A stretch of 63,998 nt of DNA, taken from the IMG/VR virus record IMGVR_UViG_3300043408_000061, positions 1-63,998 of that record; one strand, written 5' to 3'. Below are positions 29,018-63,998 of the stretch, one piece after another (position 1 is the first letter of the stretch; each line of letters starts with the position of its first letter). Made by a program: the position numbers and the translations under genes. The DNA comes from a virus. The notes beneath the pieces were generated by a model. That model was not told the origin of the DNA. It was given only the letters and a program-made list of their open reading frames with translations, and ran no database searches.

Positions 29018-29805
29018 TGGCCAACCCAATTTGCACTGACCCAGTATGCGACACGACTGTACCTGCAGTTGTTGTGCCAACAACGCCTGTACTAACACCG
29101 ACATGCGGACTACCGACAAACGGAGTGTTCACCAATGCAACCATACATACAAACGCGAGTGGGTGCATTACCCACATTGAATCCGGAGAACCTTTCTTAT
29201 ACAGTCCAGACCCCTGCTGCCCTGACAGCGGAACAGGCACGGGAGGCGGCACAGGACTTGATGGACCTAAAGGCGACCCAGGTCCGGCGGGTACTGTTAC
29301 GATTGGTACAGTCACAACAGGAGCAGCAGGTACACCTGCATCCGTCACTAATGTCGGAACTGCTAACGCCGCAATACTCAATTTCATTATCCCGGCCGGA
29401 GACAACGGTCTTGACGGCGCAACGCCTTCGGGCGTTGACTTCAACCAAAACGGCTTAATCATCGACGATGGCTTGGTGCAGCAGATGCCAAGCTGGTGGC
29501 CACCGGTCACGAACTTTAACCCACCGTCAGCGTCAGGCGACGGCGTGGTGTTAACCTTCATCAAAAACCCAGCTACAGGTGAAGTGGCAGTAACTGTTAG
29601 CGCTTCAGGCATTTTGGCTAGCTTCGCTACGGAGCAGGCCACACAGAACTCTAACATCTCTGCGCTGACTAGCACTGTTGCTACGCTGCAAACGGATTTA
29701 ACGTCGTTGCAAAACCAACATAATGCGTTACAAGTGTTACATACCGCCTTGCGCTCTGAGCACGACACGCTTAAAGCACGGATTGACGCTGCAGGAATCC
29801 CATAA
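29017..29805 (+). CDS. collagen-like (G-X-Y) fibre protein with a C-terminal coiled coil
   Basis: GTGTGGGTGLDGPKGDPGPAGT, then ...ISALTSTVATLQTDLTSLQNQHNALQVLHTALRSEHDTLKARI. The start was taken at the TAATG junction. Confidence 0.65.
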   Translation: MANPICTDPVCDTTVPAVVVPTTPVLTPTCGLPTNGVFTNATIHTNASGCITHIESGEPFLYSPDPCCPDSGTGTGGGTGLDGPKGDPGPAGTVTIGTVTTGAAGTPASVTNVGTANAAILNFIIPAGDNGLDGATPSGVDFNQNGLIIDDGLVQQMPSWWPPVTNFNPPSASGDGVVLTFIKNPATGEVAVTVSASGILASFATEQATQNSNISALTSTVATLQTDLTSLQNQHNALQVLHTALRSEHDTLKARIDAAGIP

Positions 29806-31412
29806 TGGCATCGTTCCATTTCAATTTTTTTCAATCAAGTACGCCTCGTTTAGCTGACCACCTAATACCTACTCACGGCAGCGCTGAGGCGCTTGATTGT
29901 AAATTTCATTCAGGTGAGCTGGACTCTTGGCGCGAGCCTAAGCCTGTAGCCTCTGTACCTGAAGGCACACTACGCGTTCACCGCGTGGGCTGTTGCTGGC
30001 TGCCATTTGACTCCTGTGTTGACCTATGCGACGGTCCTATCCTGTGCAATGACTTCTACGTGACGGGCCGCAACGCGTATCCAGAAGTTGGAACTGTTGG
30101 TGAAGACTGCGCTCCCATGTACTCACGCTTGGGTGTGCCATGCCCTGAGTTCAAGCTGTCAGCTCTGCCTACCAGCGCTGCAGCCAACAAGGATTTAGTT
30201 AACACATCGTTCAGTTATCAATACGTGAACGCCCGTGGTAAGATTGGTCAGCCTGCACCGGCAAGCGACAACGTGCAGTTCAACGAGGGCACGCCTGTCG
30301 TGCTATCAGGTTGGGCGATACCGGACCCGTCCTGGGGTATCACACACGTTCGCTTGTCGGTCATGGTTTCAGGCCATGAGTCGGGTAAAGAAGCTACAAA
30401 CGCATTGGACACTGCTAGCTTAATAATAGCAGACGTGCCAATAAATACAGCGTCGTACACATTTAACCAGTATTTTGAAGAGCTTGACGACGCAGTGCAG
30501 GAAGACTTTGTGCGCCCACCTCCGGATGACATGAAGGGTATCTGCCGCATATCAAGCATGAACTGCTTGGCGGGCTTCTCTGGTCGGCGTGTGTACTTCA
30601 GTCACACCAACAACCAAGATGATTGGCCGTACTTCATGGAAGTTGAAGATACCATCAAGGCCATCACGGAAAGTGGCAACATGATTTACGTTGCTACGCT
30701 TGGTCGCCCAGCGGTGATTGAGGGTGACGCCAACTGTAAAACGGCAGGCTGTCGAAGCGTCATCAACCATCAAGAGGCTTTCCCCATGGTAAATACTACC
30801 ATGGTATCAATGCCTAACGGTGCAGGCTACGCGGCCAAGGATGGGTTCGTCGTGCTGTCAGGCAATAAGACACCAAAGCTGTTGACATGGCAGACTTATG
30901 CACCGGAAGATTGGCATGAGTTTCCGCCGAACAAAGTGTTTCCTGTTTACAACAACAGCTATCTGTATATGTTCGGTGAGCGCCGCTCTGCAGTGTTTCA
31001 GTTGGCTGGCCTTGAGCATGAGGGTTGGAGCGCTGACGCGCACTCATGGCTATCAGACCGCGTAACGTATGCAACCAACGGCGGAGACGGTGAGTTGTAC
31101 ATGCTCAAAGGCACACAGCTTGAGCGCTGGAACGCCGGCTCTGCACTCCGCCCCCACAAGTGGGTATCACCTGAGATTGTGTCAGGCACTGTAAAAAACT
31201 TCCGTGCAGCCTACGTCCACTTGAGCCGTGGGCCTGAGCAGTTCGTTCTTCGCGTCGATGACCGGAACGTGGAGAGTCGCCCCGTAACCAAGCCTCAAGA
31301 CTTCGTGCTCCCCGCATGGGGTTCAGGCTACCGGTTTCAGGTTACCCTTATCGGTACCGCCAAGGTAAGGCTTGTCAGTGTAGCTACGTCGTATAAGGAA
31401 TTGACGGCTTAG
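29805..31412 (+). CDS. large structural protein (tail/nozzle candidate)
   Basis: 535 aa. The call rests on position only. Confidence 0.5.
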   Translation: MASFHFNFFQSSTPRLADHLIPTHGSAEALDCKFHSGELDSWREPKPVASVPEGTLRVHRVGCCWLPFDSCVDLCDGPILCNDFYVTGRNAYPEVGTVGEDCAPMYSRLGVPCPEFKLSALPTSAAANKDLVNTSFSYQYVNARGKIGQPAPASDNVQFNEGTPVVLSGWAIPDPSWGITHVRLSVMVSGHESGKEATNALDTASLIIADVPINTASYTFNQYFEELDDAVQEDFVRPPPDDMKGICRISSMNCLAGFSGRRVYFSHTNNQDDWPYFMEVEDTIKAITESGNMIYVATLGRPAVIEGDANCKTAGCRSVINHQEAFPMVNTTMVSMPNGAGYAAKDGFVVLSGNKTPKLLTWQTYAPEDWHEFPPNKVFPVYNNSYLYMFGERRSAVFQLAGLEHEGWSADAHSWLSDRVTYATNGGDGELYMLKGTQLERWNAGSALRPHKWVSPEIVSGTVKNFRAAYVHLSRGPEQFVLRVDDRNVESRPVTKPQDFVLPAWGSGYRFQVTLIGTAKVRLVSVATSYKELTA

Positions 31413-33881: not shown

Positions 33882-35048
33882 ATGGCAGGTATAGATTTTA
33901 TGTCCTTCATCGAAGGACGACGACTGGCAGAAAAAGATAATCGCACTGACGAGAATCATTGGCGCGACATGCTGGATAAGCAGCAGTCTTATGATATCCG
34001 TGAGCAGGCCTACGCCAACACCGAGCGCGACCAAGCCTATAAGGAGCAACAGCAAGGCTATCAGCTGACGGACATGCAGACCAAAGCTGACGACACGGAA
34101 GCCATGCGATTGGTCGGAGACTCATATGCAATTGCGCAAAAAGCTGCTCAAGCACAAGGTAAATCCATCGTGCAAGTGCTCATCGAGTCACCAATGTTTG
34201 AGCTGCAAGGTGCCAACCAACGGACTCAATCTACATTCCAAGCTGGTTGGCGCGACGTGCTGCAAAAGAGCATCATTCCGGCCTTGCGCGTCAAGGGTGA
34301 TACCGAAGCAATCAATCAATTGTCCGCTAAGTTTGGCCTGATTGACCAAAGCGGTATAGACCGAGCGCGTGAAGCCGGAAGCCCTGAGCTTATGGCCGAA
34401 CGTGTTAGTAAAACATTTGGGGCTGTACAGAATCCCAACGGTACTTTCACCATAGCTGGTAAGGAGTTTCCGCTTACTGAAGCCTGGGCGCAATCGTACA
34501 ACCTAGGCTCTAGTGTTGGCGCTACTGCGATAAACATCGGTAAGCAAGACACGGTTAACACTGCCAACGCCGCATTGCAAGCGCAGATTGCAGAAACCGC
34601 AGCTCGTGAAAGGGCAACTCGTGAATATGCGTATGTGCAAAATCACGTATCTGCAGGCGGAAACCGCGAGCAGCTGCCTTCACACCTGCAAGGTATCTAC
34701 GACACTAAGTACCCCAACGGGCTGCCGACTGCGGCCTCTGGTGCAACTGCGGCAAAGCCGATTATTGATGTTAACGCAGCTACATCGCAACCAACCATGC
34801 CTGTAACCCCAGGTGTGTCGCCTACAGGCTCATCAGTCAAAGGTTCCAGCGCAGCGGTGTTGCCGCCGGCTGCAGCAAACCTGGATTCTATGAGCACAGT
34901 TGAGCTAATAAACTTACGCAATCGCCTGATGACGGAAAAGAATGTACCCGGTTTATCTGCAGCGGAAATACTCAGCATAACGCAACGGGTAAATGAGCTG
35001 GTACAATATCGGCAGACACCATCTTATGTACGGAGTATGCCTCGATGA
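33882..35048 (+). CDS. putative internal virion protein
   Basis: 388 aa. SD AAGGAA. Confidence 0.5.
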   Translation: MAGIDFMSFIEGRRLAEKDNRTDENHWRDMLDKQQSYDIREQAYANTERDQAYKEQQQGYQLTDMQTKADDTEAMRLVGDSYAIAQKAAQAQGKSIVQVLIESPMFELQGANQRTQSTFQAGWRDVLQKSIIPALRVKGDTEAINQLSAKFGLIDQSGIDRAREAGSPELMAERVSKTFGAVQNPNGTFTIAGKEFPLTEAWAQSYNLGSSVGATAINIGKQDTVNTANAALQAQIAETAARERATREYAYVQNHVSAGGNREQLPSHLQGIYDTKYPNGLPTAASGATAAKPIIDVNAATSQPTMPVTPGVSPTGSSVKGSSAAVLPPAAANLDSMSTVELINLRNRLMTEKNVPGLSAAEILSITQRVNELVQYRQTPSYVRSMPR

Positions 35049-35782
35049 ATGAACGCGGAAAAGAAAACCTAGCCTACTCTCAGCAACCCAACGTCGCCAA
35101 GTTTTTGGCGATGGTGCAGGCTGCCGAAGGCTCCAAAGGTTACGCATCAGGGTTCAACAACGTGCCGCTTAAATCATTGGATGCACATCCAATGACTAAG
35201 AGCACGTTCACGCAAACCGATGGCACTACGAACTCGACCACAGCTGCAGGCAAATACCAGTTCATAGGAAAGACATGGAACGGTTTAAAATCCAAGCTGG
35301 GGCTTGAAGACTTCGGCGGCCCTGCGCAAGAAGCTGCAGCTGTTGAGCTTTTGCGCGAGAAGGGTGCGCTTGACGCCATCATCAAAGGCGACTGGACCAC
35401 AGCACTGGCCAAGACCGGAAGCACTTGGGCCTCACTGCCAACATCACCGTATAAGCAAGCCAAGCGCAGTTTGGATTTCGTGTATGAAAAGCTGGGTGAG
35501 AAGCGACCTGAAGGCGCAGTGTTCAAAGAGTTCTTCAAACAGCCGGCGCCAACAGGCGATTCGCCAATAGACACCACAACACCGTGGAACGCAGCTGTTG
35601 CAGGCGCACCACACTGGTCCGAAGACTTGGTTCGGCAAGCACAGATAGCTGACGATGAGCGCAACAAGCAGTCTGACCTACACGCCATGTTTTCTGATGG
35701 TACTACACCCAACCCAAAACATGAGATAGATTTGCCGCCAGCTGTGCGTGCTGCACTTGATGATATAATCCGGGCAGTTTAA
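35045..35782 (+). CDS. lambda-R-type (GH104) lytic transglycosylase
   Basis: FLAMVQAAEGS...AAGKYQFIGKTWNGLKSKLGLEDFGGPAQEAAAVELLREKGALDAI...TWASLP aligns by eye with phage lambda R. Confidence 0.85.
   Translation: MNERGKENLAYSQQPNVAKFLAMVQAAEGSKGYASGFNNVPLKSLDAHPMTKSTFTQTDGTTNSTTAAGKYQFIGKTWNGLKSKLGLEDFGGPAQEAAAVELLREKGALDAIIKGDWTTALAKTGSTWASLPTSPYKQAKRSLDFVYEKLGEKRPEGAVFKEFFKQPAPTGDSPIDTTTPWNAAVAGAPHWSEDLVRQAQIADDERNKQSDLHAMFSDGTTPNPKHEIDLPPAVRAALDDIIRAV
35761..35769 (+). promoter_or_regulatory. extended -10-like element TGATATAAT upstream of the giant gene
   Basis: TGnTATAAT inside the 3' end of the transglycosylase gene, 31 nt before the ATG at 35801. Confidence 0.35.
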
Positions 35783-35800: not shown

Positions 35801-38800
35801 ATGGCTGATATTTTTGACACCGGATTTTCAACAGTATCAGACAAAGAATGGCGGGCATTCCTAGATGAGTCAAGCCGTCCGCTTGTAGATGCACCAACAT
35901 CAGGCCGCAGTCAAACAGCGAACTTCGCTAAGCAGTTGGCGGATGCCCAACGCGCAGAGCAAAACGCCATCATCGACGCCAACAACGCGTCAGTAAAATT
36001 ACAGAATGAAGCAACCAAAGCTGCAGAGAAAGCAGCTAAAGAAACCGCAAAGCAGGCTAAGCTGGATGCTAAGGCGTTGCGCGAGGCAGGTCTACCGGAC
36101 ATTACGGAGCAGAAGCCCCTGCCTTTAAACTGGTTTGAGGCTAAGAAAGCTACAGACTATGACAACAAGCCATACGTAGAGCAGCAGCGCATCTACGGCG
36201 ATTGGCTTGACCAAGCTCAGGTAAGCATAGTCACAGCTAACCCGTCAAAGGCAGCCACTGCGCGCGCTGAGCTTGAGGCCAAAATCCCAATGCCTACAAA
36301 ACCGAAGGCGGACTTCGGTGACACGGACATCTTAGATAAGATGAACGTCGGTGCTCGCAGTTTGCTTGAGGGTGGAGCTAAAGTGGCTGCTGCGTTCATG
36401 GATGAAGGCGCTAGCAAACAATCCGTGCTGCAGTTTGCCAGTGAGCAAGCGGCGGCAAAGCAAGAAGCACGCCAGAACTTCAGCCCTGAAACTCTCGACG
36501 CTGAAAAAATGACAGCGTTTAAAAAACAGCAGCTCATCGAGAAGTATGGAAGTGAAGATGCCATACCTGCATGGGAGGGCTTCAAGCAAGGTGTTAGCAG
36601 CATGACCCAAGGCGGTGTTGTGCAAACCATCGGTAACGTAGGTCAATCGCTTGCATCTTCTGCGCCGTCCGTGGCAGGCAACGCTATGCGTATTGCAGGT
36701 GCCGGCCTGACAGCTACTGGCGGTGGCGCAGTCCTCGGCGTCCCACTTATGGCTGCAGGCACCGGCTTGGCCACGTTGGGCGGTGCTATTTCAACCGCTG
36801 CCGATGTCGGTAGCGATGTAAACGAAGAAGCCATCAAGCTGTATGAAAAGCAAGGCCTCAGTCCTAAAGCCGCACGCATTAAGGCTGAGGCCGCTACACG
36901 CACTGGCGCGTTAGCCGGTGCAGTGGTCGGTGGCATTGAGGGTTTGGTAGGCGCTAAGCTCGGTGCAGGTTCTGCTGTCAAGGCAGGTGTTGGAAGCATG
37001 GCTAAAAAGGCCACTATCGAAACTGCATCTGAAGGCGTGGCCGAAGGCGTCGGTCGAACAGCTGTAAACGCAACGCTTATCAACGAAGGCGACAATCGCA
37101 GCTTGACACGCGGTGTAGCTGAGGCTGCAGCGCAGGGCGCGATTGGCGGTTTAGGCATGGCTGCAGGCGGTCACGCATTAGCCCAAGCCACAGGCGCTAA
37201 AGAAGCACAAACGGAATCAGGCCCTGCGCCAATACCGCTGGTGCCCCAGGCCAACACGCCACAAGCTCCAGTACAAACACCCGTGTCAAATATTCCAGCG
37301 CTTGAAGCTGCAGCTGCAGCCCAAGACGCACTCGAAGCAGCCCAAGCCAAAGGCGACCCCGCTGAGATTGCAGTTGCGCAAGCTACGTTCGAGGCTGCAC
37401 GCAAAGCTGCTATAGAACCTGTAGCAACTGAGGCAACAACTACGCCTGCTGCAGTAGAAAATGTACCTAATGTTGAAGCCTTGCGCGTTGACGCGGAAAC
37501 AAAGACCGCTGTTGCTGAGGCCACACCGAAGGAAGACCCGGCATACCCTGCAGTGCAGCAGGCAGCTACGGACGCACGCGAAGCATATCAGGTTGCTATA
37601 GATTCTATAGCTGCTAATGCCGTAGAAACGAATCGTGTTGCAGATGCAGCAATCACCGACATGTTGACAAAGATTGAAGCCATCGGTGGGGGCATCTCAG
37701 ACTACGGCGTTAGCTTTGAGCCATTGGCCGGAGCCATTGGTCGCAGCGAGGGTATGCTGGTGGCGCAGGCAGCTAAGCGCCCGTGGGCATTGGACATCGC
37801 TAAAGGCGTTGAGCCTATCGTGGCTGTCGCCAGCGACGCAACTATTGAGCCGGCACAGCGGGCTGCAGCGCAGGCAGTTATCGCAGCGTTCGAGGCTACA
37901 GGCACACCGCTGCCAAAATACGAAACCACTAACCCGCCACGTGGTAGCACATCAGGTTCAATGTCGCACAGCAACATCAATCCTGCTGTACCGGGTGTAC
38001 TAAAACTAAACCGTAAATCTGCAGGCATAGCGACAATCATTCACGAGAATGTCCACGCGCTCACAGTGCTGGGGCTTGAGCAGATGCGCCGAAGTGGTAG
38101 CAAGCGAGACAAAGATGTTCTCGCTGGGCTTGACGCTATAATGGATTTCATTGAGCAGCACGCAGCAATACGGGCAACTAAAGCCGGTGCGATGTACGCA
38201 GCTAAGAATCGCTTTGAACTATTGGCAGAATCCATGAGTGGGCGCGCTTTGCCGTTCACATCTCAGTACACTGTGCAGGATGTCATCGACGCTGGAGAAC
38301 TTAGCCAAGGTGCAATTGAAGGCTTGATGATTCTAACCAATCGTCAGCCGACCACACTGCAGCAACTGTTCGCCAAGGCCAGGGACTACGTGCTCAAGGC
38401 CATGGGTTTGGCAGCCGCACGCAAAGGCAGTATCAGCGATGCGGTTCTGGCCGCGCAGGACATCGCCATGAATCGCCAATCATCAATGCTTGTGGAAAAC
38501 AGCGATGAGACCCTTGCCCCAGGCTATAGCTACGCAGGAAAGAACGCAACCGGAAACTACGCTACAAGCCTGTCGCAACTGGTGCAAGGTTTGCCCCAGA
38601 AGTACGAAGGTATTTACACCACAGCCGACGGTACCGCGATTGACCCCAACGACAGCTTGGCCTCAGTCGCCAGCAAGCCAGCCGTTGTCGCATTGCTCAA
38701 GGCCAAAGGATTTGATGGCTTCAAGACCGAGGGCGGTGAGACGTTCAGCTTGACAAACAATGACTCAAGCGGAAACTTCGATGCGTGGTTCAACGGAAGC

Positions 38801-41800
38801 AAGGTTGTCGATAAGCAAGGCAACCCATTGAAGATGTACACCAGTACATCTTCCGATGTGGACTTTAAAAAATTCAAGATGCCCCGTAATGGTACTTGGT
38901 TCACAATGTGGGCTGACTCAGCATCTGATTATGCGATTGACAACGATTCCAAAGGTTTGAAATACAACCCTGACACTCGGAAGTACGACGATGTTAACTC
39001 CGCTTCTCGCGTGCTGCCAGTATATCTACGTATTGTCAACCCGTACCCTATGACATCCGTGGATATGCAGCGTGTCAATGTGGCAAACTACAAGGCGGCT
39101 CAGGCCAAGTTGTTCGACGAGCTTCGAGCCAAAGGTTATGATGGTGTGCAGTGGTCGCCTGCTGAGTGGGTTGCTATAGGTTCTGCAAATCAAATTAAAT
39201 CCGCTATCGGTAACAACGGTGATTTCAGCCTCAGTTCGCCATTGATAAACAATGACGAAACACCACAAGCAAAGGCTATCACAGCGCAGGTTGCAAATAT
39301 CCAGCGCGTCATCGTCAGCAAGCGCACGACCAACGAGCAGCGCCTGACATACGTCGCTCGATTCCTCAACGGTACGCATGATGCGGACGTGATGAACGCA
39401 ATAAACGAAACTGGTGTAGGCCTGACGGTTCGCGCTTCACGTGAGACGCGTGCGCCATGGGCCGAAGCCGTACACTACGGTGACAAAGACTTATTGCAAG
39501 CCATCGCCACTGGCGCGTCAGATGTTGGTCAAGGTGCGGCAGCCCAAGCGCGTGCCGTGTTGCGCATGTACATGGAAGCCGGTCAAGACTTACCGAAAGT
39601 AGTAAAGATTGACGGCCTTATTCCTTTTGGTGATAAAGAAGCCATGGGTCAGTACATCCCTGAGCACCACACTGTTGAGCTGTCAGACCTATCAGACCCA
39701 AGCCACGCGGTGCATGAGTACCTGCACGGTGTTACACAGCTGGGCGTTGACGCTGCAAGCCGCAGTCCTGAAGGTAAGGCGCTCAAGTCCGTGATGCAGT
39801 ACATGCTCACATCCATGCGTACAACCGTGGTTCGTGAGGGTGAGACAAAGCCTTATGGCCTTGAGAACGAGCATGAGATGATGGGTGAATTGTTTAGTCC
39901 GTCGTTGCTGTCCGTGGCTGCACGCACCCCAATCGGAACGCCGCAGTCCAAAGCTGCACAGAAGATGATTGCTGAGCTGATGGGTGAGAAACCCGGCACC
40001 ATGATTCAACTGCTAGACGCGCTCATCCGTAAGATTGTGTCTTACATCGGTGTGAAGACGGTACCAAACAACATGGCAGAACTTTTGAGTCGTGTAGCTG
40101 CACGCGCTGTCGATGAAACGCGCAAGGCTGTGAACGATGGCATCGCGCCAGCGGACGCATTAGACCGTCCGGCGTTAGCTCCTGAGAGTGCAGCGTTCAA
40201 GTTGTGGTTTGGCAATAGCAAGGTTGTAGATGCAAGCGGCAAGCCTTTGGTTGTGTATCACGGTACTGGTGATGACATATCACGCTTCAAGGACGGGTTC
40301 GCACGAGCACGTAAAGGGTTCTACTTTACATCAAACCCTGAGTTCGCAGGTCGCTTTGCGGAAGACGCCGCAAGCGGCATTGGCTACGAATCTGATGAGC
40401 GAGCACAAGGTGCAAGCATCGTACCGGTATATTTAAGTTTGCAAAACCCTATTGACACTACTGCAGGTTGGCCTATCAGTGCGCTCAAAGGGCGTGTATC
40501 TGAAGTTGATTTAGCTGAGCTGCAGGACCTAGAGCCTACGGATTTTTGGATTGGCCTTGATGATGACCTCGGTTCTCGCGTATCTTCAGCCCTTAAAGCG
40601 TCAGGCTTTGATGGTGTTAAGGCTACAGAAGGTGGTAACCCTGTGTTCGTAGCCTTCGAGCCAAATCAAATAAAATCTGCCACGGGTAATAGCGGCAATT
40701 ATGATGGCTCGTCGCTCTTCATCAACGATGAAGTCCTGCCATCCGGCACTGTGCCACTGAGCATGAACACCCTAGGCCAAACGCTGACAGGCCGCATGGC
40801 AGGTGGCGATTACATAAACAATATCACCGCTGGTGTTAACGTCGAGCCTGTGCTGTTGTCCAGCAAGGTGCGTATGTTGGCCGCTGGTGAGAGTAGTCGC
40901 AGCGACAACTTCAAACAGCGCAAGGTGAACCAGCTAAATGACTTGCTGCACGACGCTCAAGGACCCGCGAAGCGCTGGATTATGTCACTGCCAATCAGCG
41001 AGGCTGCACGCCGCCGTATCAGCGACTTGCTATACCTGGCTCCCGGCAAGCGTGACAACGCGCTTACTGACGCCATGGAAAACCACGGCGGTAACGACGT
41101 GCTCGCGCAGCTGTCAGACATTAAGCGCAGCACCAAAGGCCTGACGTATGAGACTATCACCAGCTGGGTTGGTCACTGGATTACCGCCAACCACGTCGCA
41201 GAGAAAAACGACGGGCTTGTAGCCAAGCGTAAATCTGCGGCAGATGAAGCGGCAGTCGCATCAATGCAGAAGCCTAACGACATGCGCCTAGCGCTTGCAG
41301 CCGCTCGCGCGCAGCAGGCGTATCAAAACCAAGTTGACGCTGTTAACTCCACGGACTTAAACGCTGGCACGGAACAAGGCCCTGCGCACAAGGCTGGTGT
41401 GGCAGGTGGTTTGAATAACGCGCAGGCGGCAGCGCTCATGGCTGCAGTTGAAGGTCGCATACCGGTTGACAAGCTCAAGGCCGTGGCTGAGCGCGTGTAT
41501 GACCTGAACGCATACCGCTTGACGCTTGACATCGAGAGTGGCAAGGCTAATATCGTTAACGTACAGACGTTCCTAAAGCTGTCCGACGCTGACACACTCA
41601 AGTTGCAAGCGTTACACGACGCTGCACGCGATGGTACTGCAACTGAAGACATGCGCAATGAAGTGCGTGCGTTAGTGCGTAGTGAGTACGTACCTATGAC
41701 CGGGCACCCAATGTCCAGCATCGACGGTGCTGAGGCGGGTGTGTTCGGAGCCGGCAGCGCACAGCCAAATAGCCAAAAGAATTTCACCATGGAAGGCCGC

Positions 41801-43759
41801 ACGCGTGGCGTAGCTGACAACGGTATCGCAACCACGCTATCAGGATTGGTTAAGAGCGCCACGTTCCACGGATACGCAGACTTCACCACTGGTATTGGAG
41901 AAGCATACGACATGCTGAGCGACGACCAACGTGCAGCCGTAGGTATCACCAAGCATACAACCAAAGGTACTACGCGCGGTGGTGACAACGTTATTCTCGA
42001 TGGCCGCAAGAACAACGAAGTGAGCTACACTATTCAAGACCCTGCTGTGCTGGATGCAATACGTAAATCCAACGTCGCTGAGCATGACTACTTGCTGCAG
42101 AACTCCATCGGGAAGCTGACCAAGGGCTTTGCGTATTTGGTTACACAGGCTAACCCAATATTCGGTGTGAAGAACTTGATTAACGACGTTATCGAGCGTT
42201 CTCTTGTCCTATCAACGCGTGAATATTTCACGGCATCTGGCGGAAAGACTACGATTGGTGCTATGAAAATGGTAGCTAATACTGGTACCGCTTTCGGCGC
42301 TGTTAACCGCTTGTTGCGGGGTACTGCAGACTACAGCCAAGAGGCTGACATCGCATTGCGCGACTTGGTTGCAGCTGGCGGTATGAGTATAAGCCGTGAT
42401 GTGTTTGCGCGTGACGCGGTGAGTTTGTCTCGCAAGATTCGAGCAGCCGGTGACGGCGCTATGAGCGCACGCGGTGTAGTGCATACCGTTGGCAGTTGGA
42501 TTGACAAGTGGAATAAGCAGTTTGATATGGTGTCACCGCTTGCGTCGTACTTGGCATTGCGCCAAGCCGGTGTCACTGAGGTAGACGCTGCTGGTGGTGC
42601 GCTGGACCTGATGAACTTCCGCAAGAAGGGTGCTGCCATGGGCAACATATCTCAGGTATATGCGTTTGCACAACCGGCAGTAACTGGTGGCGCCAACATG
42701 CTGGGTGCGTTGAGCACTAAGAAAGGCCTCACGATTGCAGCGACATCGCTTATCGGGTTCGCGGCACTGCAGGCACTGGCCGAGGCTGGAGCAGATGATG
42801 ACGAAGGCGGAAACCTGCTGCGCCAACTACCTGATTATGCACGCAATCAGAACTTGAATGTGCAAGTTGGCGATTACGTTATCAGTGTCCCGTTGGGCTT
42901 CGGTACAACACGACTGGCCAAGACCGTAGGACGCATCGGTTCCGACATGGTGTACAAAGACAAAGGCGCTGGCGAAGCGCTGGTCGATATTGTCAAAGAG
43001 GGTTTGGTTCCAGCGCTGCTGCCGATTGAAGACACGAAAATTAAGGACCCGCTCAAGAAAGTGGCGTTCGAGTTTACACCTACAGCATTGAAGCCGTTGG
43101 CCGCATTAGCATTGAACGTGGATTCACAAGGCAATCAGATTGACCGTGAGAAGTGGATTGACCCTAAGCAATATCGTCACATGCAGGGTAGCAAGACTAT
43201 TGCCCCTCAATACCGTGACTTGGCAGCGCTTACGTTTGAGATGTCCGGCGGTATGCTCGACCTAACGCCTGAAGCTGCAAAGACAGTTATTCAGGGCTAC
43301 AGCTTGGGGTTGTTTAAGACGCTCGTCGCTGAGACAATAACAAACCCACATCGTGAATCCCAAGGCAAGGATACACCATTACCTATCGTTGGTTCATTGC
43401 TGTCATCAGTGGCCAAGCCTATCAACGAGGATGCGTGGAAAGGCCAAGTGCGTGCAGCTCAGCAAGAGCTGGATGAATTGAAGCGGGAAGAGGCTAAGCT
43501 AGAAGCTAGCAGCAACCCTGATGACCGCGTGGCACTGCGTGATTTGCAGCGTAAGCCTGAGTACAAACTCCTGCAGACATACGATGAGCTTGACAAGCGC
43601 TTACGCGCTGAATCTGCACGCGTTACACGCTCAGAGAACTCAGGCCAGATTACTGAGAAGGCAGCCAAAGAGCGCAAGGATACCATACGCGAGCGCCGGT
43701 CAGTTGAAGAAGCTAAGTTCTTGGTGCAATGGCGCAAAGCAAAGGGCCTCAACGAGTGA
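35801..43759 (+). CDS. giant (2652 aa) polyvalent virion/ejection protein with two HExxH modules and two ART-like modules
   Basis: Single uninterrupted ORF. HENVH at 38042-38056 and HEYLH at 39713-39727. ART-like modules at about 38768-39220 and 40190-40696. Gly/Ala-rich hydrophobic N-terminal region and C-terminal hydrophobic segments. Confidence 0.8.
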   Translation: MADIFDTGFSTVSDKEWRAFLDESSRPLVDAPTSGRSQTANFAKQLADAQRAEQNAIIDANNASVKLQNEATKAAEKAAKETAKQAKLDAKALREAGLPDITEQKPLPLNWFEAKKATDYDNKPYVEQQRIYGDWLDQAQVSIVTANPSKAATARAELEAKIPMPTKPKADFGDTDILDKMNVGARSLLEGGAKVAAAFMDEGASKQSVLQFASEQAAAKQEARQNFSPETLDAEKMTAFKKQQLIEKYGSEDAIPAWEGFKQGVSSMTQGGVVQTIGNVGQSLASSAPSVAGNAMRIAGAGLTATGGGAVLGVPLMAAGTGLATLGGAISTAADVGSDVNEEAIKLYEKQGLSPKAARIKAEAATRTGALAGAVVGGIEGLVGAKLGAGSAVKAGVGSMAKKATIETASEGVAEGVGRTAVNATLINEGDNRSLTRGVAEAAAQGAIGGLGMAAGGHALAQATGAKEAQTESGPAPIPLVPQANTPQAPVQTPVSNIPALEAAAAAQDALEAAQAKGDPAEIAVAQATFEAARKAAIEPVATEATTTPAAVENVPNVEALRVDAETKTAVAEATPKEDPAYPAVQQAATDAREAYQVAIDSIAANAVETNRVADAAITDMLTKIEAIGGGISDYGVSFEPLAGAIGRSEGMLVAQAAKRPWALDIAKGVEPIVAVASDATIEPAQRAAAQAVIAAFEATGTPLPKYETTNPPRGSTSGSMSHSNINPAVPGVLKLNRKSAGIATIIHENVHALTVLGLEQMRRSGSKRDKDVLAGLDAIMDFIEQHAAIRATKAGAMYAAKNRFELLAESMSGRALPFTSQYTVQDVIDAGELSQGAIEGLMILTNRQPTTLQQLFAKARDYVLKAMGLAAARKGSISDAVLAAQDIAMNRQSSMLVENSDETLAPGYSYAGKNATGNYATSLSQLVQGLPQKYEGIYTTADGTAIDPNDSLASVASKPAVVALLKAKGFDGFKTEGGETFSLTNNDSSGNFDAWFNGSKVVDKQGNPLKMYTSTSSDVDFKKFKMPRNGTWFTMWADSASDYAIDNDSKGLKYNPDTRKYDDVNSASRVLPVYLRIVNPYPMTSVDMQRVNVANYKAAQAKLFDELRAKGYDGVQWSPAEWVAIGSANQIKSAIGNNGDFSLSSPLINNDETPQAKAITAQVANIQRVIVSKRTTNEQRLTYVARFLNGTHDADVMNAINETGVGLTVRASRETRAPWAEAVHYGDKDLLQAIATGASDVGQGAAAQARAVLRMYMEAGQDLPKVVKIDGLIPFGDKEAMGQYIPEHHTVELSDLSDPSHAVHEYLHGVTQLGVDAASRSPEGKALKSVMQYMLTSMRTTVVREGETKPYGLENEHEMMGELFSPSLLSVAARTPIGTPQSKAAQKMIAELMGEKPGTMIQLLDALIRKIVSYIGVKTVPNNMAELLSRVAARAVDETRKAVNDGIAPADALDRPALAPESAAFKLWFGNSKVVDASGKPLVVYHGTGDDISRFKDGFARARKGFYFTSNPEFAGRFAEDAASGIGYESDERAQGASIVPVYLSLQNPIDTTAGWPISALKGRVSEVDLAELQDLEPTDFWIGLDDDLGSRVSSALKASGFDGVKATEGGNPVFVAFEPNQIKSATGNSGNYDGSSLFINDEVLPSGTVPLSMNTLGQTLTGRMAGGDYINNITAGVNVEPVLLSSKVRMLAAGESSRSDNFKQRKVNQLNDLLHDAQGPAKRWIMSLPISEAARRRISDLLYLAPGKRDNALTDAMENHGGNDVLAQLSDIKRSTKGLTYETITSWVGHWITANHVAEKNDGLVAKRKSAADEAAVASMQKPNDMRLALAAARAQQAYQNQVDAVNSTDLNAGTEQGPAHKAGVAGGLNNAQAAALMAAVEGRIPVDKLKAVAERVYDLNAYRLTLDIESGKANIVNVQTFLKLSDADTLKLQALHDAARDGTATEDMRNEVRALVRSEYVPMTGHPMSSIDGAEAGVFGAGSAQPNSQKNFTMEGRTRGVADNGIATTLSGLVKSATFHGYADFTTGIGEAYDMLSDDQRAAVGITKHTTKGTTRGGDNVILDGRKNNEVSYTIQDPAVLDAIRKSNVAEHDYLLQNSIGKLTKGFAYLVTQANPIFGVKNLINDVIERSLVLSTREYFTASGGKTTIGAMKMVANTGTAFGAVNRLLRGTADYSQEADIALRDLVAAGGMSISRDVFARDAVSLSRKIRAAGDGAMSARGVVHTVGSWIDKWNKQFDMVSPLASYLALRQAGVTEVDAAGGALDLMNFRKKGAAMGNISQVYAFAQPAVTGGANMLGALSTKKGLTIAATSLIGFAALQALAEAGADDDEGGNLLRQLPDYARNQNLNVQVGDYVISVPLGFGTTRLAKTVGRIGSDMVYKDKGAGEALVDIVKEGLVPALLPIEDTKIKDPLKKVAFEFTPTALKPLAALALNVDSQGNQIDREKWIDPKQYRHMQGSKTIAPQYRDLAALTFEMSGGMLDLTPEAAKTVIQGYSLGLFKTLVAETITNPHRESQGKDTPLPIVGSLLSSVAKPINEDAWKGQVRAAQQELDELKREEAKLEASSNPDDRVALRDLQRKPEYKLLQTYDELDKRLRAESARVTRSENSGQITEKAAKERKDTIRERRSVEEAKFLVQWRKAKGLNE

Positions 43760-46938: not shown

Positions 46939-49020
46939 TCAATCCTTCCTATATCTAACGTTAGTCTCATATCCTGCAGCTGCAAGCGGCAGGCCCTTAC
47001 ACCAGTCGTGCGGTGTTGATAGAATCGCACCAAGGCCAGCATCGTTAAACGCTGGACTATCCGGTGTTTCTGTAATCAACTCGTCGTGAACTCGCATGAC
47101 TGTAGTATAACCCAAATCTCCAGCTTTTAGCATGGCGTGCAATAAAAAATCTCTGGCGCTTGCTTGTGTTGCGTGCGCGACAAACTTACCTGCATAGATG
47201 TGGGTGCGCACCCACTGATTCGTCACTTGGTCCATGCTCATGTAGGTGATTCCGTCCTCTGTAATACGAGGGTTCGGGTAGCTTAGTACGCGGCCTGATG
47301 GCAACTTGCAGAATATCCACTTGCTTCTGCGCTTGTACGCTAGGTGTTGGCCAGCCTTGAACCACACATCTGGTGTGATATATGCATTGCGGAACGCTGC
47401 TTCGCAGTCAGCCCAAAGCTGAGCTACGTTGCCATGTGCGCTGCGCCACTGCTGCTTGATATACTCACACGCAGCCCACTGATGAAGCGGTAAGCCGTAA
47501 TCAAATTTGTTTTTCTGCGCCCAATCAAACTTGCGTAGGACCTCATGCCACAGCGCTTTGTCTGCTGCCGCTTCGGTAGCAGATGCGAGCTGCTCCAGGT
47601 CTACGCGGTAGATACCTAAAAACTGCAGGAGTCCAGACACTCCGCTACCAAATCCTAGGCTAAGCTCGGCGGCTTTGCCTACGTTACGGCGGTCTTTAGA
47701 TACGTCCTCCGGTGCGACGCCCATCATCTTTGAGTATGCAGCCACGTAGTTATCAAACTTAATTTTGCCTGCGTCGTAGTCGCTGAAATACGACAGTTTC
47801 CACGACTCGCCGGCGAGCCATACAACGACACGCCCCTCAATGTTGGATAGGTCTGACACGACTAGCTTCTTGCCTTGCGATGGAACGATAGCTCCACGTA
47901 ACGCGGACGACAAAACATCCATCGGCTTCGCGTGTGTAAGTTCAAGGCACCCTGCTTTGATGTCCGCTATCAAACCCTCGGCGTCATGCTCGAACCAACC
48001 CGCTGGCCTAGGTAGATTCTGCGGCTGAAAGACACGACCGGCGTCGCGGCCCGTGCCGCTTGCACCACAGAATAAAATCGTTCCAGTCATGCGACCACGC
48101 GAATCGCTGCAAGCCAACAGCTTTTTGTACTTGGCAACAGAGGCTTTAGACACTGCCGCACGCTGCTCAAGCAAGAAGCGGGCTCCCTGCGGTATGTCCG
48201 TTGCTAGGGCTTTGTCGATTGTCGCTGACTGCATGTTCGGCAGGTCAACCTGATACTCCGTTTTCAGGTGTTCGCGCAATGCTGCAGTCTGTGTTGTCGA
48301 ACTTAACAATCCCTCAGTGGCATCTGATACGTCCTGCGCAGAGGCTTTAGCTACTCGCTCTGCTGTTGATACCGCTGTGCTCGCCAGTGCTAAGTCAACA
48401 CCAAAACCTCGTTGGTTCATGCGCTCCGTCTCAACCCACAGAATGCGCTCTATGTGTGAAGCGTCAAGCGGAAAGTTCGCCTTCGGCATCAAGTTGTGTA
48501 TCTCGCGCATAGCAACCACATCATTCACGCAGTACTCTCGGAAGCGTAGCCATTTATCCGCCGGCTCGACACCTCGGAAGCAACCTTGAGCATCAGGTGT
48601 ACAGAACCAACGGACCAGCGTTCGTCCGTCTTTCAGCTTGGCTTTGTCAGATGGCAGCTTAAACACAGTGCATAAATTGTCGAGCGACGCGGGCAGGTTA
48701 TGCTCCAATGCTTGAGTCATCGTGCAATACCAGCGCTCTAACGGGATAGGAAACCCAAATAGCCCAGTGCTGTTTATGAGCTGCGCGTCAAATGAGGCGT
48801 TGTGTGCCAGCAAAGTGTTGGCTGCATCTTTGGCTGCGTCATACAGAGCTACAGGGCAAGGCTCGCCAGACCGCACATCCCACATCTGCACCGGTTTGTC
48901 ATCAATAGCCCACGCGCAGAGCAAAACGCTAGCACCTGTGCAGTAGTTAGCCAAGCCAGTGGATATGTCTACAGTGCTGTAAGTCTCTAGGTCGATGAAA
49001 ATCTTAGCCATGGTTTGCAA
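46939..49020 (-). CDS. family A DNA polymerase with 3'-5' exonuclease domain
   Basis: Exo motifs IFIDLETYS, HNASFDAQL and YCVNDV. Pol motifs VVSDLSNIEGRV, RRNVGKAAELSLGFGSG and RVHDELI. Confidence 0.9.
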   Translation of the reverse strand: MQTMAKIFIDLETYSTVDISTGLANYCTGASVLLCAWAIDDKPVQMWDVRSGEPCPVALYDAAKDAANTLLAHNASFDAQLINSTGLFGFPIPLERWYCTMTQALEHNLPASLDNLCTVFKLPSDKAKLKDGRTLVRWFCTPDAQGCFRGVEPADKWLRFREYCVNDVVAMREIHNLMPKANFPLDASHIERILWVETERMNQRGFGVDLALASTAVSTAERVAKASAQDVSDATEGLLSSTTQTAALREHLKTEYQVDLPNMQSATIDKALATDIPQGARFLLEQRAAVSKASVAKYKKLLACSDSRGRMTGTILFCGASGTGRDAGRVFQPQNLPRPAGWFEHDAEGLIADIKAGCLELTHAKPMDVLSSALRGAIVPSQGKKLVVSDLSNIEGRVVVWLAGESWKLSYFSDYDAGKIKFDNYVAAYSKMMGVAPEDVSKDRRNVGKAAELSLGFGSGVSGLLQFLGIYRVDLEQLASATEAAADKALWHEVLRKFDWAQKNKFDYGLPLHQWAACEYIKQQWRSAHGNVAQLWADCEAAFRNAYITPDVWFKAGQHLAYKRRSKWIFCKLPSGRVLSYPNPRITEDGITYMSMDQVTNQWVRTHIYAGKFVAHATQASARDFLLHAMLKAGDLGYTTVMRVHDELITETPDSPAFNDAGLGAILSTPHDWCKGLPLAAAGYETNVRYRKD

Positions 49021-49513
49021 ACTCTCCGTGATGTAGTTCGCGCTGTGCGCGTATTGCTGCAGTTGCTTCTTCTAAAGTGGCAAAACGGTCTCCGATTGAT
49101 TTTCCGTTTACTCGAAGGGTTGTTTTGTAGGGCTTGTCGGTAGTATAGAGCAGGAGCATAACACCTTTGACTCCGGTTTTATTCGTCTTGCGATTGCGCA
49201 TGTTCTGCTGGTTCTGCGCTCTTGTGCATAGTCGCAGGTTGGAAGGCGTATTGTTTAGACCATCGCCGTCGCAGTGGTCAACCAGCTTATCGGGCCAAGT
49301 ACCGTGCTGTAAGGCGTAGGCTATCACATGTGCGTAAATAAACCGGCGTACTCCGGTTTCGTTCGTTACGCCTACTTGACGATATGATGTTCTAGGCGCT
49401 GTCACTAAACCGCCGGCTATGGTTCTGGTTGTTCTGTTGTTACCTCTGTCAACGCGCCACATCACGTTTGGCCCATCCATAATAAACAGCTCACGCGCTC
49501 GTTCGATAGTCAT
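49004..49513 (-). CDS. HNH-AP2 homing-type endonuclease
   Basis: HCDGDGLNNTPSNLRLCTRAQNQQN (HNH) plus C-terminal TGVKGV...TLRVNGKSIGDRFATLEEA (AP2-like). The longest ORF start (49555) falls in the terminator T-tract, so an internal ATG was chosen. Confidence 0.75.
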   Translation of the reverse strand: MTIERARELFIMDGPNVMWRVDRGNNRTTRTIAGGLVTAPRTSYRQVGVTNETGVRRFIYAHVIAYALQHGTWPDKLVDHCDGDGLNNTPSNLRLCTRAQNQQNMRNRKTNKTGVKGVMLLLYTTDKPYKTTLRVNGKSIGDRFATLEEATAAIRAQRELHHGEFANHG

Positions 49514-49551
49514 GTGGTTTTCAATGCTTGATTTCATACAACTATTGTAAA

Positions 49552-49585
49552 ACAAAAAAGCCCTGCTGGTTCAGGGCTTTTAATA
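49552..49585 (-). terminator. Rho-independent terminator (hairpin 49558-49579)
   Basis: AAGCCCTG-CTGGTT-CAGGGCTT. On the minus strand it is followed by TTTTTTGTTTT. On the plus strand it is also followed by TTTT. Confidence 0.75.
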
Positions 49586-61184: not shown

Positions 61185-61386
61185 ATTCAACCCCCTTGAC
61201 AAAGTAATACTTTGCGTTGCTGCGGGATACTGTTCCTTCTTTTTCGTGTGCCTCGTCGTATGCCGCATCAAATGCCGCATCTTGTCTAGCTCGCCTGATT
61301 CGTTCAATGGCTGCCGTCCAATCAGCAGGGCTTCCTGCGGTGGCTTCGTAGTTGAGTATGATTCTGTGCGCTTCGTCTAGTGTCAT
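61159..61386 (-). CDS. hypothetical early protein
   Basis: 75 aa. ATGA overlap with paralog copy 1. Confidence 0.5.
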   Translation of the reverse strand: MTLDEAHRIILNYEATAGSPADWTAAIERIRRARQDAAFDAAYDEAHEKEGTVSRSNAKYYFVKGVEYATGLLHD

Positions 61387-61880
61387 GCGAATATCTCCTT
61401 GAAAATTTCGATTTGGGCTTCACGCTCTGATGCTTCTGCTGCCCATGCTGCTCCACGTGCTGCCCATGCTGCTGCCTGTGATGCTGCCTGTGATGCTGAT
61501 GCTACTGGTTCTACTGCCCGTGATGCGTATGCTGCTGCCCGTGATGCGTATGCTGCTGCTGCTACTGCTTCCCAGCCTGCTGCGTGAAGCTCTGCCTTGG
61601 TCGCAGTGCCGTCGAGATAGCGCTCGGTTACATCGTTGCACGCCTTAGCTGCTGGGTTTAGGTGCTCAACACGTCGGGCGACGGCTAAGGCGAAGCGCTG
61701 AGTGCGCTCAGGTGTTGGCTCAGTACGTAAGCACCAGATTGCATCATCTAAACCATTGCTTTCAAGTACGGTCAGGAGCGATAGCGGTTCGTCATCACCT
61801 TTGGTTTTGCCTAGGTGCTTTAGCAGTTTAGTCCAGCCGTCTGAGCATGGAGAGTGATAGCGGATGTCATTGAGTGTCAT
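61383..61880 (-). CDS. Ala-rich-tail paralog, copy 1
   Basis: 165 aa. Conserved head MTLNDIRYHSPCSDGWTKLL..., a 52-aa variable tract with AAAYASR duplicated, and tail SEREAQIEIFKEIFA. Confidence 0.8.
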   Translation of the reverse strand: MTLNDIRYHSPCSDGWTKLLKHLGKTKGDDEPLSLLTVLESNGLDDAIWCLRTEPTPERTQRFALAVARRVEHLNPAAKACNDVTERYLDGTATKAELHAAGWEAVAAAAYASRAAAYASRAVEPVASASQAASQAAAWAARGAAWAAEASEREAQIEIFKEIFA

Positions 61881-62404
61881 GCGAATATCTCCTTGAAAAT
61901 TTCGATTTGGGCTTCACGCTCTGATGCTGCACGTGCTGCTCCTGCTGCTGCACGTGCTGCGGCTGCCCATGCTGCTGATGATGCTACTGCTGCTGCCTGT
62001 GCTACTGCTGCGTCTGCTGCGTCTACTGCGTGTGCTGCTGACCATGCTGCTGCTGCTGCGTCTGCTGCGTCTGCTGCCCATGCTGCTGCTGCTGCGTCTG
62101 CTGCTGCATCAAGCTCTGCCTCGGTCGCAGTGCCGTCGAGATAGCGTTCGGTTACATCGTTGCACGCCTTAGCTGCTGGGTTTAGGTGCTCAACACGTCG
62201 GACGACGGCTAAGGCGAAGCGCTGAGTGCGCTCAGGTGTAGGCTCAGTACGTAAGCACCAGATTGCATCCTTTAAACCATTGCTTTCGAGTACGGTCAGG
62301 AGTGATAGCGGTTCGTCATCGCCTTTGGTTTTTCCTAGGTGCTTTAGAAGTTTAGTCCAGCCATCTGAGCATGGAGTGCTATAGCGAATGTCATTGAGTG
62401 TCAT
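61877..62404 (-). CDS. Ala-rich-tail paralog, copy 2
   Basis: 175 aa with the same head and tail and a 62-aa variable tract. Confidence 0.8.
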   Translation of the reverse strand: MTLNDIRYSTPCSDGWTKLLKHLGKTKGDDEPLSLLTVLESNGLKDAIWCLRTEPTPERTQRFALAVVRRVEHLNPAAKACNDVTERYLDGTATEAELDAAADAAAAAWAADAADAAAAAWSAAHAVDAADAAVAQAAAVASSAAWAAAARAAAGAARAASEREAQIEIFKEIFA

Positions 62405-62907
62405 GCGAATAGCTCCGTGAAAATTTCTACATGGGCTTCACGCTCTGATGCGTCTGCTGCCCATGCTGCTGATGCTGCCCATGCTGCTGCTGCTGCTGCT
62501 GCTACGGCTGCCCATGATGCTGCGTCTACTGCGTGTGCTGCTGACCATGCTGCTGCTGCTGCGTCTGCTGCGTCTGCTGCCCATGCTGCTGCTGCTGCGT
62601 CTGCTGCTGCATCAAGCTCTGCCTCGGTCGCAGTGCCGTCGAGATAGCGTTCGGTTACATCGTTGCACGCCTTAGCTGCTGGGTTTAGGTGCTCAACACG
62701 TCTAGCGACGGCTAAGGCGAAGCGCTGTGTGCGCTCAGGTGTTGGCTCAGTACGTAAGCACCAGATTGCATCATCTAAACCGTTGCTTTCGAGTACGGTC
62801 AGGAGTGATAGCGGTTCGTCGTCGCCTTTGGTTTTGCCTAGGTGCTTTAGAAGTTTAGTCCAGCCATCTGAGCATGGGCCATGAGAGCGAATGTCATTGA
62901 GTGTCAT
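62401..62907 (-). CDS. Ala-rich-tail paralog, copy 3
   Basis: 168 aa. The first 32 aa of the tract are identical to copy 2, then the two diverge. Confidence 0.8.
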   Translation of the reverse strand: MTLNDIRSHGPCSDGWTKLLKHLGKTKGDDEPLSLLTVLESNGLDDAIWCLRTEPTPERTQRFALAVARRVEHLNPAAKACNDVTERYLDGTATEAELDAAADAAAAAWAADAADAAAAAWSAAHAVDAASWAAVAAAAAAAWAASAAWAADASEREAHVEIFTELFA

Positions 62908-63140: not shown

Positions 63141-63143
63141 GGT

Positions 63144-63680: not shown

Positions 63681-63998
<318 letters not shown>

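Follow-up and report, generated by a model that had tools for sequence, protein, structure and literature searches.

The question raised by this locus is what a single protein of 2652 amino acids (aa), encoded at the very end of the late genes of a virus, might do for the virus that makes it. The gene lies in IMG/VR virus record IMGVR_UViG_3300043408_000061, of which positions 1 to 63,998 were analysed; this whole stretch of 63,998 nucleotides (nt) is called the window below, and nucleotide positions refer to it. The open reading frame (ORF) in question is the following.

35801..43759, + strand: giant polyvalent protein, whole ORF, 2652 aa; closes the late arm and converges on the replication arm; an identical copy on a Logan contig, and syntenic orthologues

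The answer proposed here, which we hold to be probable, is that the product of the ORF is a polyvalent protein of the phage type, in which a conserved scaffold serves for delivery, that it carries two ART-PolyVal cassettes at linker sites, and that it is packaged in the capsid and injected into the host together with the DNA. As read from sequence, the scaffold consists of an N-terminal domain shared with gp50, the virion RNA polymerase (vRNAP) of phage N4, a zincin-like metallopeptidase (MPTase) that is duplicated in this lineage, and a C-terminal module of ~1000 residues that ends in an LPD38 domain. A hypervariable cargo region lies between the peptidase and the C-terminal module, and in this protein it holds one ADP-ribosyltransferase-like (ART) domain after each peptidase. 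A preliminary description of the locus, made from the letters alone, had already called the ORF a polyvalent virion protein, and the polyvalent assignment is borne out by Pfam, which places two ART-PolyVal domains and one LPD38 domain in the protein, all above threshold, and nothing else. The protein thus fits the phage-type polyvalent proteins that have been described, and is no new kind of system (Iyer, Burroughs, Anand, de Souza & Aravind, 2017, J Bacteriol; PMC5512222). With these it shares its size as a giant late product, one or more zincin-like MPTases interspersed with effector domains, more than one ART-PolyVal domain (H-Y-D, Tox-ART-HYD2-like), LPD38, and a mosaic shuffling of domains between orthologues (PMC5512222). 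It differs in that its MPTase is undetected by any Pfam model, that one of its ARTs is of a rare His-less T-W-D type, and that gain and loss of cassettes is visible at nucleotide resolution among close relatives. What is new here is this nucleotide-level view of cassette exchange at paralogous linker sites, together with the His-less ART subclade.

The frame itself is secure. It runs through 2652 codons without interruption, as first described, and a Logan contig, known from three samples, carries an identical 2652-aa protein. Three other assemblies have intact orthologues within the same gene order, of 2311 aa (P0001, 77% identity), 2513 aa (P0002, 56%) and 2301 aa (P0003, 60%); the ORF is therefore no assembly artefact, and the frameshift splits in independent assemblies that the preliminary description had proposed to look for were not found. 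In addition, the first 127 nt of the window are identical to nt 63872-63998, an assembly overlap which indicates that the genome, of 63,871 bp, is complete and either circular or terminally redundant.

Both ART-like segments singled out at the outset are present, and each exceeds the gathering cut-off of the Pfam ART-PolyVal model (PF18760, 31.2 bits) when it is scanned separately, ART1 with 60.9 bits over aa 1004-1142 and ART2 with 98.7 bits over aa 1477-1633. They are about 31-32% identical to each other (BLAST E 9e-19) and make up the two cassettes listed here.

38756..39247, + strand: ART1 cassette, aa 986-1149, ART-PolyVal of the T-W-D subclade (T1014, W1033, D1114); GC 0.47
40172..40711, + strand: ART2 cassette, aa 1458-1637, ART-PolyVal with an H-Y-D triad (H1487, Y1508, D1604); GC 0.496

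The active site of ART-PolyVal consists of a His in strand 1, a Tyr in strand 2 and an Asp in strand 5 (Iyer et al., PMC5512222). ART2 has this configuration and ART1 does not; the replacement of HGT by TST, from which the first copy had been suspected to be inactive, was found as described, and it leaves ART1 without the catalytic His. Among 85 ART domains from 70 related proteins this His is kept in 81 and the Asp in most, and the four domains that lack the His are all T-W-D and related to one another (49-72% identity). By sequence, ART1 is a member of the ART-PolyVal family that is not predicted to be an active H-Y-D-type enzyme; it belongs to a conserved His-less subclade and is probably no conventional transferase, yet it is under selection for some function.

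An AlphaFold2 (AF2) model of ART2 (pLDDT 80.5, pTM 0.78) was compared with solved structures. Its top match was chain 9k3a_B from the cyanophage A4 pre-ejectosome (Foldseek E 5.4e-4, probability 1.0, TM 0.39), and its best enzyme match was the NAD+ phosphorylase MbcT (6fkg; E 6.5e-4, TM 0.43-0.45), followed by the ADP-ribosyltransferase AcrIF11 (6kyf; E 1.9e-3), the latter two at probabilities of 0.99-1.0; tankyrase and PARP1/2 were also among the matches. The model thus indicates that ART2 shares the ADP-ribosyltransferase fold with solved ARTs, and ART2 is probably the one active ADP-ribosyltransferase of the protein. AcrIF11 is a phage and plasmid ART that disables a defence complex, and it and MbcT share the ART fold with the model; they differ from ART2 in having no similarity to it at the level of sequence and in being small stand-alone proteins. 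A search of the sequences in the Protein Data Bank (PDB) with an ART profile came back empty.

These fold matches bear on what the ARTs would modify. It is conceivable, though in our view improbable, that the ARTs leave host proteins unmodified. They would then either break down NAD+, with NADase activity or the NAD+ phosphorylase activity seen in MbcT, or have nucleic acids as substrates, and the benefit could lie, for instance, in blunting NAD+-dependent defences or in labelling DNA or RNA. The rank of MbcT among the matches of ART2 speaks for this, as does the triad of ART-PolyVal, a family with no known substrate, which ends in Asp where classical protein ARTs have Glu (PMC5512222). The same model also matched AcrIF11, a protein ART that acts on a CRISPR complex, and PARPs and tankyrase; ART-PolyVal has been grouped with protein-modifying ARTs (Iyer et al., PMC5512222), and a few molecules per virion would be a weak means of depleting NAD+.

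Modification of a host macromolecule by ART2 stays the preferred reading, and the next part of the protein to be considered is the peptidase that precedes each cassette. HENVH at aa 748 (nt 38042-38056) and HEYLH at aa 1305 (nt 39713-39727) are where the preliminary description had placed them, and they are the sole HExxH motifs of the protein. Given its composition, with 27 His, 0.015 such motifs are expected by chance, and two or more arise with P = 5e-5 (20,000 shuffles). Each motif lies in a predicted module.

37727..38410, + strand: zincin-like metallopeptidase module A, aa 643-870; H748, E749, H752, T755, E806, with an invariant H723 upstream
39395..40060, + strand: zincin-like metallopeptidase module B, aa 1199-1420; H1305, E1306, H1309, T1312, E1359, with H1290 upstream

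By BLAST the two modules match each other weakly (21% identity, E 1e-3). Because a profile built from the orthologues of either module finds the other at 5e-10 to 3e-5, they are paralogues of ~220 aa each. Seven aligned module sequences share, without exception, a His ~15-25 residues upstream, HExxH, a Thr at +3 and a Glu ~50 residues downstream, and the combination of HExxH with a downstream Glu is, as read from sequence, the gluzincin pattern. In an AF2 model of module B (pLDDT 82, pTM 0.80) a long helix is followed by a small beta-sheet, the HExxH helix (model residues 101-121), a further helix and the helix that bears the Glu (158-165), a topology that fits the zincin core of an N-terminal helix, a three-stranded sheet and two C-terminal helices. 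Compared with the predicted viral structures in BFVD, this model gave matches at E 5e-5 to 1e-3 (TM 0.4-0.65) to 'large polyvalent protein associated domain' proteins and N4-like virion RNA polymerases, as well as to an internal core protein from a Ralstonia phage and to a crAss-like 'RNAP associated protein fused to zincin protease'.

A hidden Markov model (HMM) search of 1.84 billion representative proteins recovered 74 members of this peptidase family at E <=1e-3, nearly all of them giants of 2000-5000 aa. HExxH is retained in every family representative that was mapped from these matches, apart from one weak secondary stretch. Remote members reach Pfam zincin models below threshold only, for example ATLF with 24.0 bits against a cut-off of 27.4, and also SprT-like, Zn_peptidase_2, M4 and M90. 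It was concluded that the modules form a Pfam-invisible clade of the polyvalent-protein MPTase, and their conservation makes catalytic activity likely. The early description of these segments as zincin-like is thus upheld by the invariant HExxH and Glu, by the topology of the model, by its fold matches to anthrax lethal factor and IrrE, and by homology to the metallopeptidase region of the N4 vRNAP.

This last homology connects the protein to a virion enzyme that has been studied. A profile of the MPTase family matches N4 gp50 at aa 2184-2297, around LIHELVHAST, with an E of 8e-8; the real match scores 27.7 bits, as compared to no more than 6.0 in 300 local, composition-preserving shuffles. 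The match falls inside gp50 aa 2130-2448, a region that was unified with the zincin metallopeptidases and served as the seed of that family (Iyer et al., PMC5512222). A second stretch of resemblance lies towards the N terminus.

36041..37408, + strand: N-terminal gp50-like region of ~450 residues, with Gly/Ala-rich stretches inside; seen by profile, BLASTP and hydropathy

A profile of the N-terminal 640 aa matches gp50 aa 171-528 (E 1e-11; 41.1 bits, where 300 local shuffles gave a maximum of -2.8), and BLASTP finds 28% identity between the two regions (E 1.6e-5). The gp50 gene of N4, a member of the Schitoviridae, is likewise the last of its late arm and faces replication genes. The two proteins therefore share an N-terminal region, an HExxH..T MPTase module and a late-arm position convergent with the replication genes; they differ in that the protein of the window has no vRNAP Pfam domains, its central part being MPTase and ART cargo, and in that its LPD38 module is unmatched in gp50.

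Specifically, vRNAP_dom, vRNAP_dom_2, N4_RNAP_helical and vRNAP_plug, all of which Pfam finds in gp50, are absent from the 2652-aa protein. Because these domains are missing and the C-terminal 1000 aa have no counterpart in gp50, the protein shares the flanking parts of the vRNAP and is not a vRNAP itself. No RNA polymerase was found among the other ORFs of the window that were scanned, a result which a small or divergent one could escape, and past the replication genes the early arm has only ORFs of less than ~280 aa. The other structural proteins of the window show no BLASTP similarity to N4 gp51-gp59. A further new point is that the N-terminal and peptidase parts of gp50 form, as these comparisons indicate, a cargo-independent frame, and the presence of such a frame in phages without a virion polymerase bears on the origin of the N4-type enzyme.

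Knowledge of the N4 enzyme also supplies a different role for the peptidases. They may, instead of processing the protein, be effectors that cleave host proteins after ejection, or a determinant of encapsidation, while the giant protein acts uncut; we regard this as possible, if rather unlikely. The best fold matches of module B, anthrax lethal factor and IrrE/PprI, are indeed effector or regulatory proteases, and the N4 vRNAP is reported to be packaged unprocessed, so that autoprocessing is not a given, while its encapsidation requires the region that contains the MPTase (Iyer et al., PMC5512222). Moreover, two family members (P0079 and P0080) keep their peptidases without recognisable cargo, with ~65-85 aa between MPTase and C1 and nothing obvious to release. 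A purely structural role is at odds with the strict conservation of HExxH and Glu across the family, which speaks for catalysis; release would also suit an arrangement in which each cargo slot has a peptidase immediately upstream, and no host substrate is indicated.

Whether peptidase and ART came as one unit can be asked directly of the close relatives. The preliminary description had taken the protein to contain two copies of the same two-part unit, a peptidase and an ART duplicated together. In a four-way alignment, ART1 (aa 986-1149) is missing from P0001, P0002 and P0003 at that slot, and ART2 (aa 1458-1637) from P0001 and P0003, the alignment being otherwise continuous. Both ARTs are thus clean indels relative to orthologues of 77%, 56% and 60% identity. 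The ART1 junctions are marked by a direct repeat of 15 nt.

38750..38764, + strand: 15-nt direct repeat at the ART1 junction, left copy (TTGACAAACAATGAC); spacing 492 nt, equal to the insertion size
39242..39256, + strand: 15-nt direct repeat at the ART1 junction, right copy (TTGATAAACAATGAC); spacing 492 nt, equal to the insertion size

The second slot of P0002 holds an ART that is 72% identical to ART1 of the window and 34% identical to ART2, with NEEVLP on both sides. In P0001, which is free of ARTs, the two slots read SLTNNDE and SLFVNDE, that is, S-L-x-x-N-D-E. The GC content of the ART1 and ART2 cassettes (0.47 and 0.496) compares with 0.544 in the rest of the gene.

The peptidase pair, by contrast with the cassettes, is present in P0001, P0002, P0003 and the more remote P0072 (42% identity), and P0001, P0003 and P0072 have the pair without any ART. 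The peptidase duplication is thus shared by ART-free relatives, and ART1 and ART2 come from different subclades and were inserted separately; the idea of one duplicated unit of HExxH and ART was rejected on the strength of the four-way alignment and the ART subclade identities. Because the pair is kept in ART-free relatives and the ARTs are absent from orthologues, the peptidase duplication is read as an old scaffold and the ARTs as recent, separate acquisitions. P0071, which was considered as an independent relative with two ARTs, was discarded, being a 100% identical fragment of the window protein itself.

The wider family has the same plan. About 35 representatives share an N domain, an MPTase, a variable region of 65-1350 aa and C1-C2-C3, and in six of these an ART stands directly before C1. 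In five other members of the family the variable region gave no Pfam match. P0006 and P0007, which are more distant polyvalent proteins, have arrays of ARTs with a repeated linker between them (...PDIRYSLRQTNTPAFKQWFG...), so that the theme of repeated junctions recurs there. Mosaicism in polyvalent proteins has been described in general terms (Iyer et al., PMC5512222).

Near the slots, three further observations were made. The segment at nt 38650-40150 (aa ~951-1450) is 84-94% identical in nucleotides to the relative L003, and 63-84% at third positions, while the rest of the gene is 61-84% identical and 41-68% at third positions; because the region between the slots is closer to L003 than the rest of the gene, this suggests that the segment was exchanged more recently. 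The tail of module A just upstream of the ART1 slot (aa ~895-985, nt 38480-38755; LLKAKGFDGFKTEGGE) weakly resembles the C-terminal third of ART-PolyVal, and it shares with ART1 a near-repeat of 17 nt (38702-38718 and 39128-39144). This stretch may be a decayed older ART; as a firm claim the idea was dropped, a resemblance of 4-8 bits being too weak. Elsewhere in the family, the variable region of P0004 (aa 864-1613) contains three copies of a unit with the motif R-Y-Q-S..L-x-F-x-S-x-I-D, and that of P0107 (aa ~1164-1786) contains an HExxxH-type segment (MHEVGVH), neither region having a Pfam match.

One could go further and view the S-L-x-x-N-D-E linkers as dual plug-in sites, which serve both as short recombination targets for cassette swaps, from phage to phage and from slot to slot, and as cleavage sites where the peptidase just upstream releases its cargo after ejection, on a scaffold of one peptidase for one cargo. 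This is a speculation to which we give little credence. If it were true, the family would be a programmable delivery scaffold, of which the N4 virion RNA polymerase is just one cargo.

The part of the protein that follows the second cassette is its most widely conserved (aa 1665-2647), and it can be divided as follows.

40793..41947, + strand: C-terminal module part 1, aa 1665-2049, of no known family; conserved, with a match in Pasteurella phage Pmp11
41948..42820, + strand: C-terminal module part 2, aa 2050-2340, in which a D-L-M-N-F-x-x-x-G motif is followed by hydrophobic segments (aa 2277-2330, nt 42629-42790) and these by an acidic DDDEG patch
42821..43321, + strand: LPD38 domain (PF18857), aa 2341-2507; 74.7-78.2 bits against a cut-off of 27

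Beyond LPD38, a domain reported only from phage-type polyvalent proteins (Iyer et al., PMC5512222), the conserved block extends as far as aa 2647, where a charged helical tail closes it. By tblastn, aa 1665-2647 match Pasteurella phage Pmp11 over ~940 aa, and aa 2068-2308 have matches in Vibrio podophages, the Methanosarcina virus MetMV and Stx2a phages. Profiles of the module gave no match to gp26-29 of phage A4. The module could serve in capsid anchoring, channel formation or translocation. The Gly/Ala-rich N-terminal stretches and hydrophobic C-terminal segments that had been read as signs of a membrane-inserting protein were located (uncharged stretches at aa 263-334 and 369-389, and aa 2277-2330, respectively). 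That the protein inserts into membranes is a guess.

When these parts are put together, a sequence of events can be proposed. The protein would be made late, packaged in the capsid with other internal proteins, and ejected into the host before the DNA or along with it. ART2, with its intact H-Y-D triad, would then use NAD+ to ADP-ribosylate a host macromolecule, possibly a component of defence or transcription, in a way that favours infection, and the His-less ART1 may bind NAD, ADP-ribose or a target. For the metallopeptidases, the most plausible task would be cleavage of the giant protein itself or of a neighbouring one, by which the cargo would be released or activated; they may equally serve encapsidation, the role reported for the matching region of N4. 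A working model for such a course is T4 Alt, an ART that is packaged in the phage head, enters the cell along with the DNA and soon modifies proteins of the host; Alt is set apart by description, as a small R-S-E ART of the Alt/VIP2 clade found outside polyvalent proteins, where the ART here is H-Y-D. Packaging in the virion is plausible because of synteny and homology to N4 gp50; like packaging, ejection, processing, enzymatic activity and targets are inferred.

The synteny in question involves two neighbours in the late arm.

35045..35782, + strand: upstream neighbour, protein with a lambda-lysozyme-like lytic transglycosylase domain; match to 1am7 at E 8.9e-15, PHROG lysozyme families
29805..31412, + strand: 535-aa protein, assigned to a PHROG 'internal virion protein' family (phrog_511, 1.5e-62); kept in L003, L004 and L005

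The giant gene stands directly 3' of the lambda-lysozyme-like gene, and phage lambda lysozyme is a lambda-type lytic transglycosylase. The preliminary description had placed the ORF at the end of the late arm, after a transglycosylase and three putative internal virion proteins; its position and the transglycosylase just upstream were recovered (1am7, E 8.9e-15), and one internal virion protein, the product of ORF 29805-31412, was recognised by its match to phrog_511. The ejection proteins of podophages (A4 gp26-gp29, PMC12002296; T7 gp14-16) likewise have their genes where the structural block ends, beside that for a lytic transglycosylase, and there are likenesses in fold, since a chain of the A4 pre-ejectosome (9k3a_B) tops the matches of ART2 and a Ralstonia phage 'internal core protein' is among those of the peptidase. 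The difference from A4 gp26-29 is that there is no sequence similarity and that channel formation is not indicated for the 2652-aa protein.

The same neighbourhood bears on the view that the protein is neither packaged nor ejected and is instead a late cytoplasmic or tail-associated protein, for example one like a fibre or a tape measure, whose domains act in assembly or lysis. It is true that packaging is argued from the genes, that comparable giants such as A4 gp27 have been annotated as tail proteins, and that in Pasteurella phage Pmp11 the homologous giant ORF lies directly after the portal gene and does not end a block of tail and internal proteins. Nevertheless, we consider this view very unlikely: two regions of the protein are homologous to N4 gp50, which is packaged and injected (PMC5512222), the gene follows a member of an internal-virion-protein family and a lytic transglycosylase, cryo-electron microscopy of A4 has revealed its 'tail proteins' gp26-gp28 to be components of a pre-ejectosome inside the capsid (PMC12002296), and cargo that ADP-ribosylates or cuts proteins has no obvious role in a fibre.

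Besides the unprocessed state of the packaged N4 enzyme, several points weigh against the proposal of a packaged protein that releases an active transferase. The protein and its close relatives are known from their genes, and packaging is deduced from late-arm position, neighbours and gp50 homology; the C-terminal 1000 aa, which contain the LPD38 module, find no gp50 counterpart by profile, and the hydrophobic segments on which membrane insertion would depend are short and Gly/Ala-rich. Pfam has no match to either HExxH module at E values up to 10, and no zincin model at threshold, and the PDB fold matches of module B, although all of them are zincins (anthrax lethal factor, then IrrE/PprI), are weak (best E 0.045, TM 0.3-0.4). 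With regard to the transferase, the second position of the triad varies across the family between Tyr, Phe and Trp, we know of no ART-PolyVal domain with demonstrated ADP-ribose transfer, and MbcT, the closest enzyme fold match, degrades NAD+ and does not modify a target. The ARTs have no sequence similarity to A4 gp26-29, so the match to 9k3a_B is one of fold only, and kinship in sequence between the ARTs and the A4 ejection proteins was accordingly set aside; nor does the A4 paper describe an ART-like domain (PMC12002296). If the A4 match is real, it would be an experimental precedent for an ART-like domain in the core of podophage ejection proteins.

To our knowledge, almost no polyvalent protein has been studied experimentally. 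By prediction, these proteins are one of the chief ways in which phages bring finished enzymes into the cell before any phage gene is expressed, and a CRISPR interference (CRISPRi) study found another putative polyvalent protein to be essential in coliphage PTXU04, which shows, with no mechanism given, that the genes for such proteins matter. Near-isogenic scaffolds with zero, one or two ART cassettes in defined slots constitute a clean natural experiment, and this natural set allows a direct test of the effect of a cassette on host range or defence evasion and of the role of the adjacent peptidase.

A megablast search of 50,697 phage records with the gene found no match, tblastn returned partial matches of low identity only, and the terminase is at most 40% identical to that of any cultured phage; for these reasons no annotated close relative could be used. 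PADLOC and NCBIfam searches of the protein gave no match, and a search of PDB sequences with the whole protein was empty.

The rest of the genome has a simple layout, in which a late arm on the + strand converges with a replication arm on the - strand. From the terminase (8212) and portal (9626) genes the late arm extends to the giant ORF, and the replication arm begins 45 nt past its stop. Replication-arm genes encode an SNF2-like helicase, DNA polymerase A, an HNH endonuclease and a PrimPol/VapE primase. Genes for an Enc34-type single-stranded DNA (ssDNA)-binding protein and a PD-(D/E)XK protein were recognised in syntenic relatives, and ORFs of 197 aa and 400 aa in the window are taken to be their counterparts.

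Other features were noted in passing. Two ORFs have the look of adhesins on virion proteins, one of 813 aa that follows the portal gene and contains DUF11 repeats (nt 11958-14399), and one of 385 aa with a PA14/GLEYA domain (nt 15863-17020). An HNH_3 endonuclease gene (nt 49004-49555, - strand) abuts the DNA polymerase A gene; because it is missing from that position in L003 and an HNH_3 gene lies elsewhere in L005, it is likely to be a mobile homing endonuclease. The polymerase gene of L004 encodes 1041 aa, as compared to 693 aa. Finally, at least five copies of a ~370-nt unit, of 85-88% nucleotide identity and ~500-nt spacing, occupy nt 61383-63680 and 1-778 on the - strand, and they constitute a tandem array of paralogous small early ORFs (137-178 aa) in which Pfam found no match.

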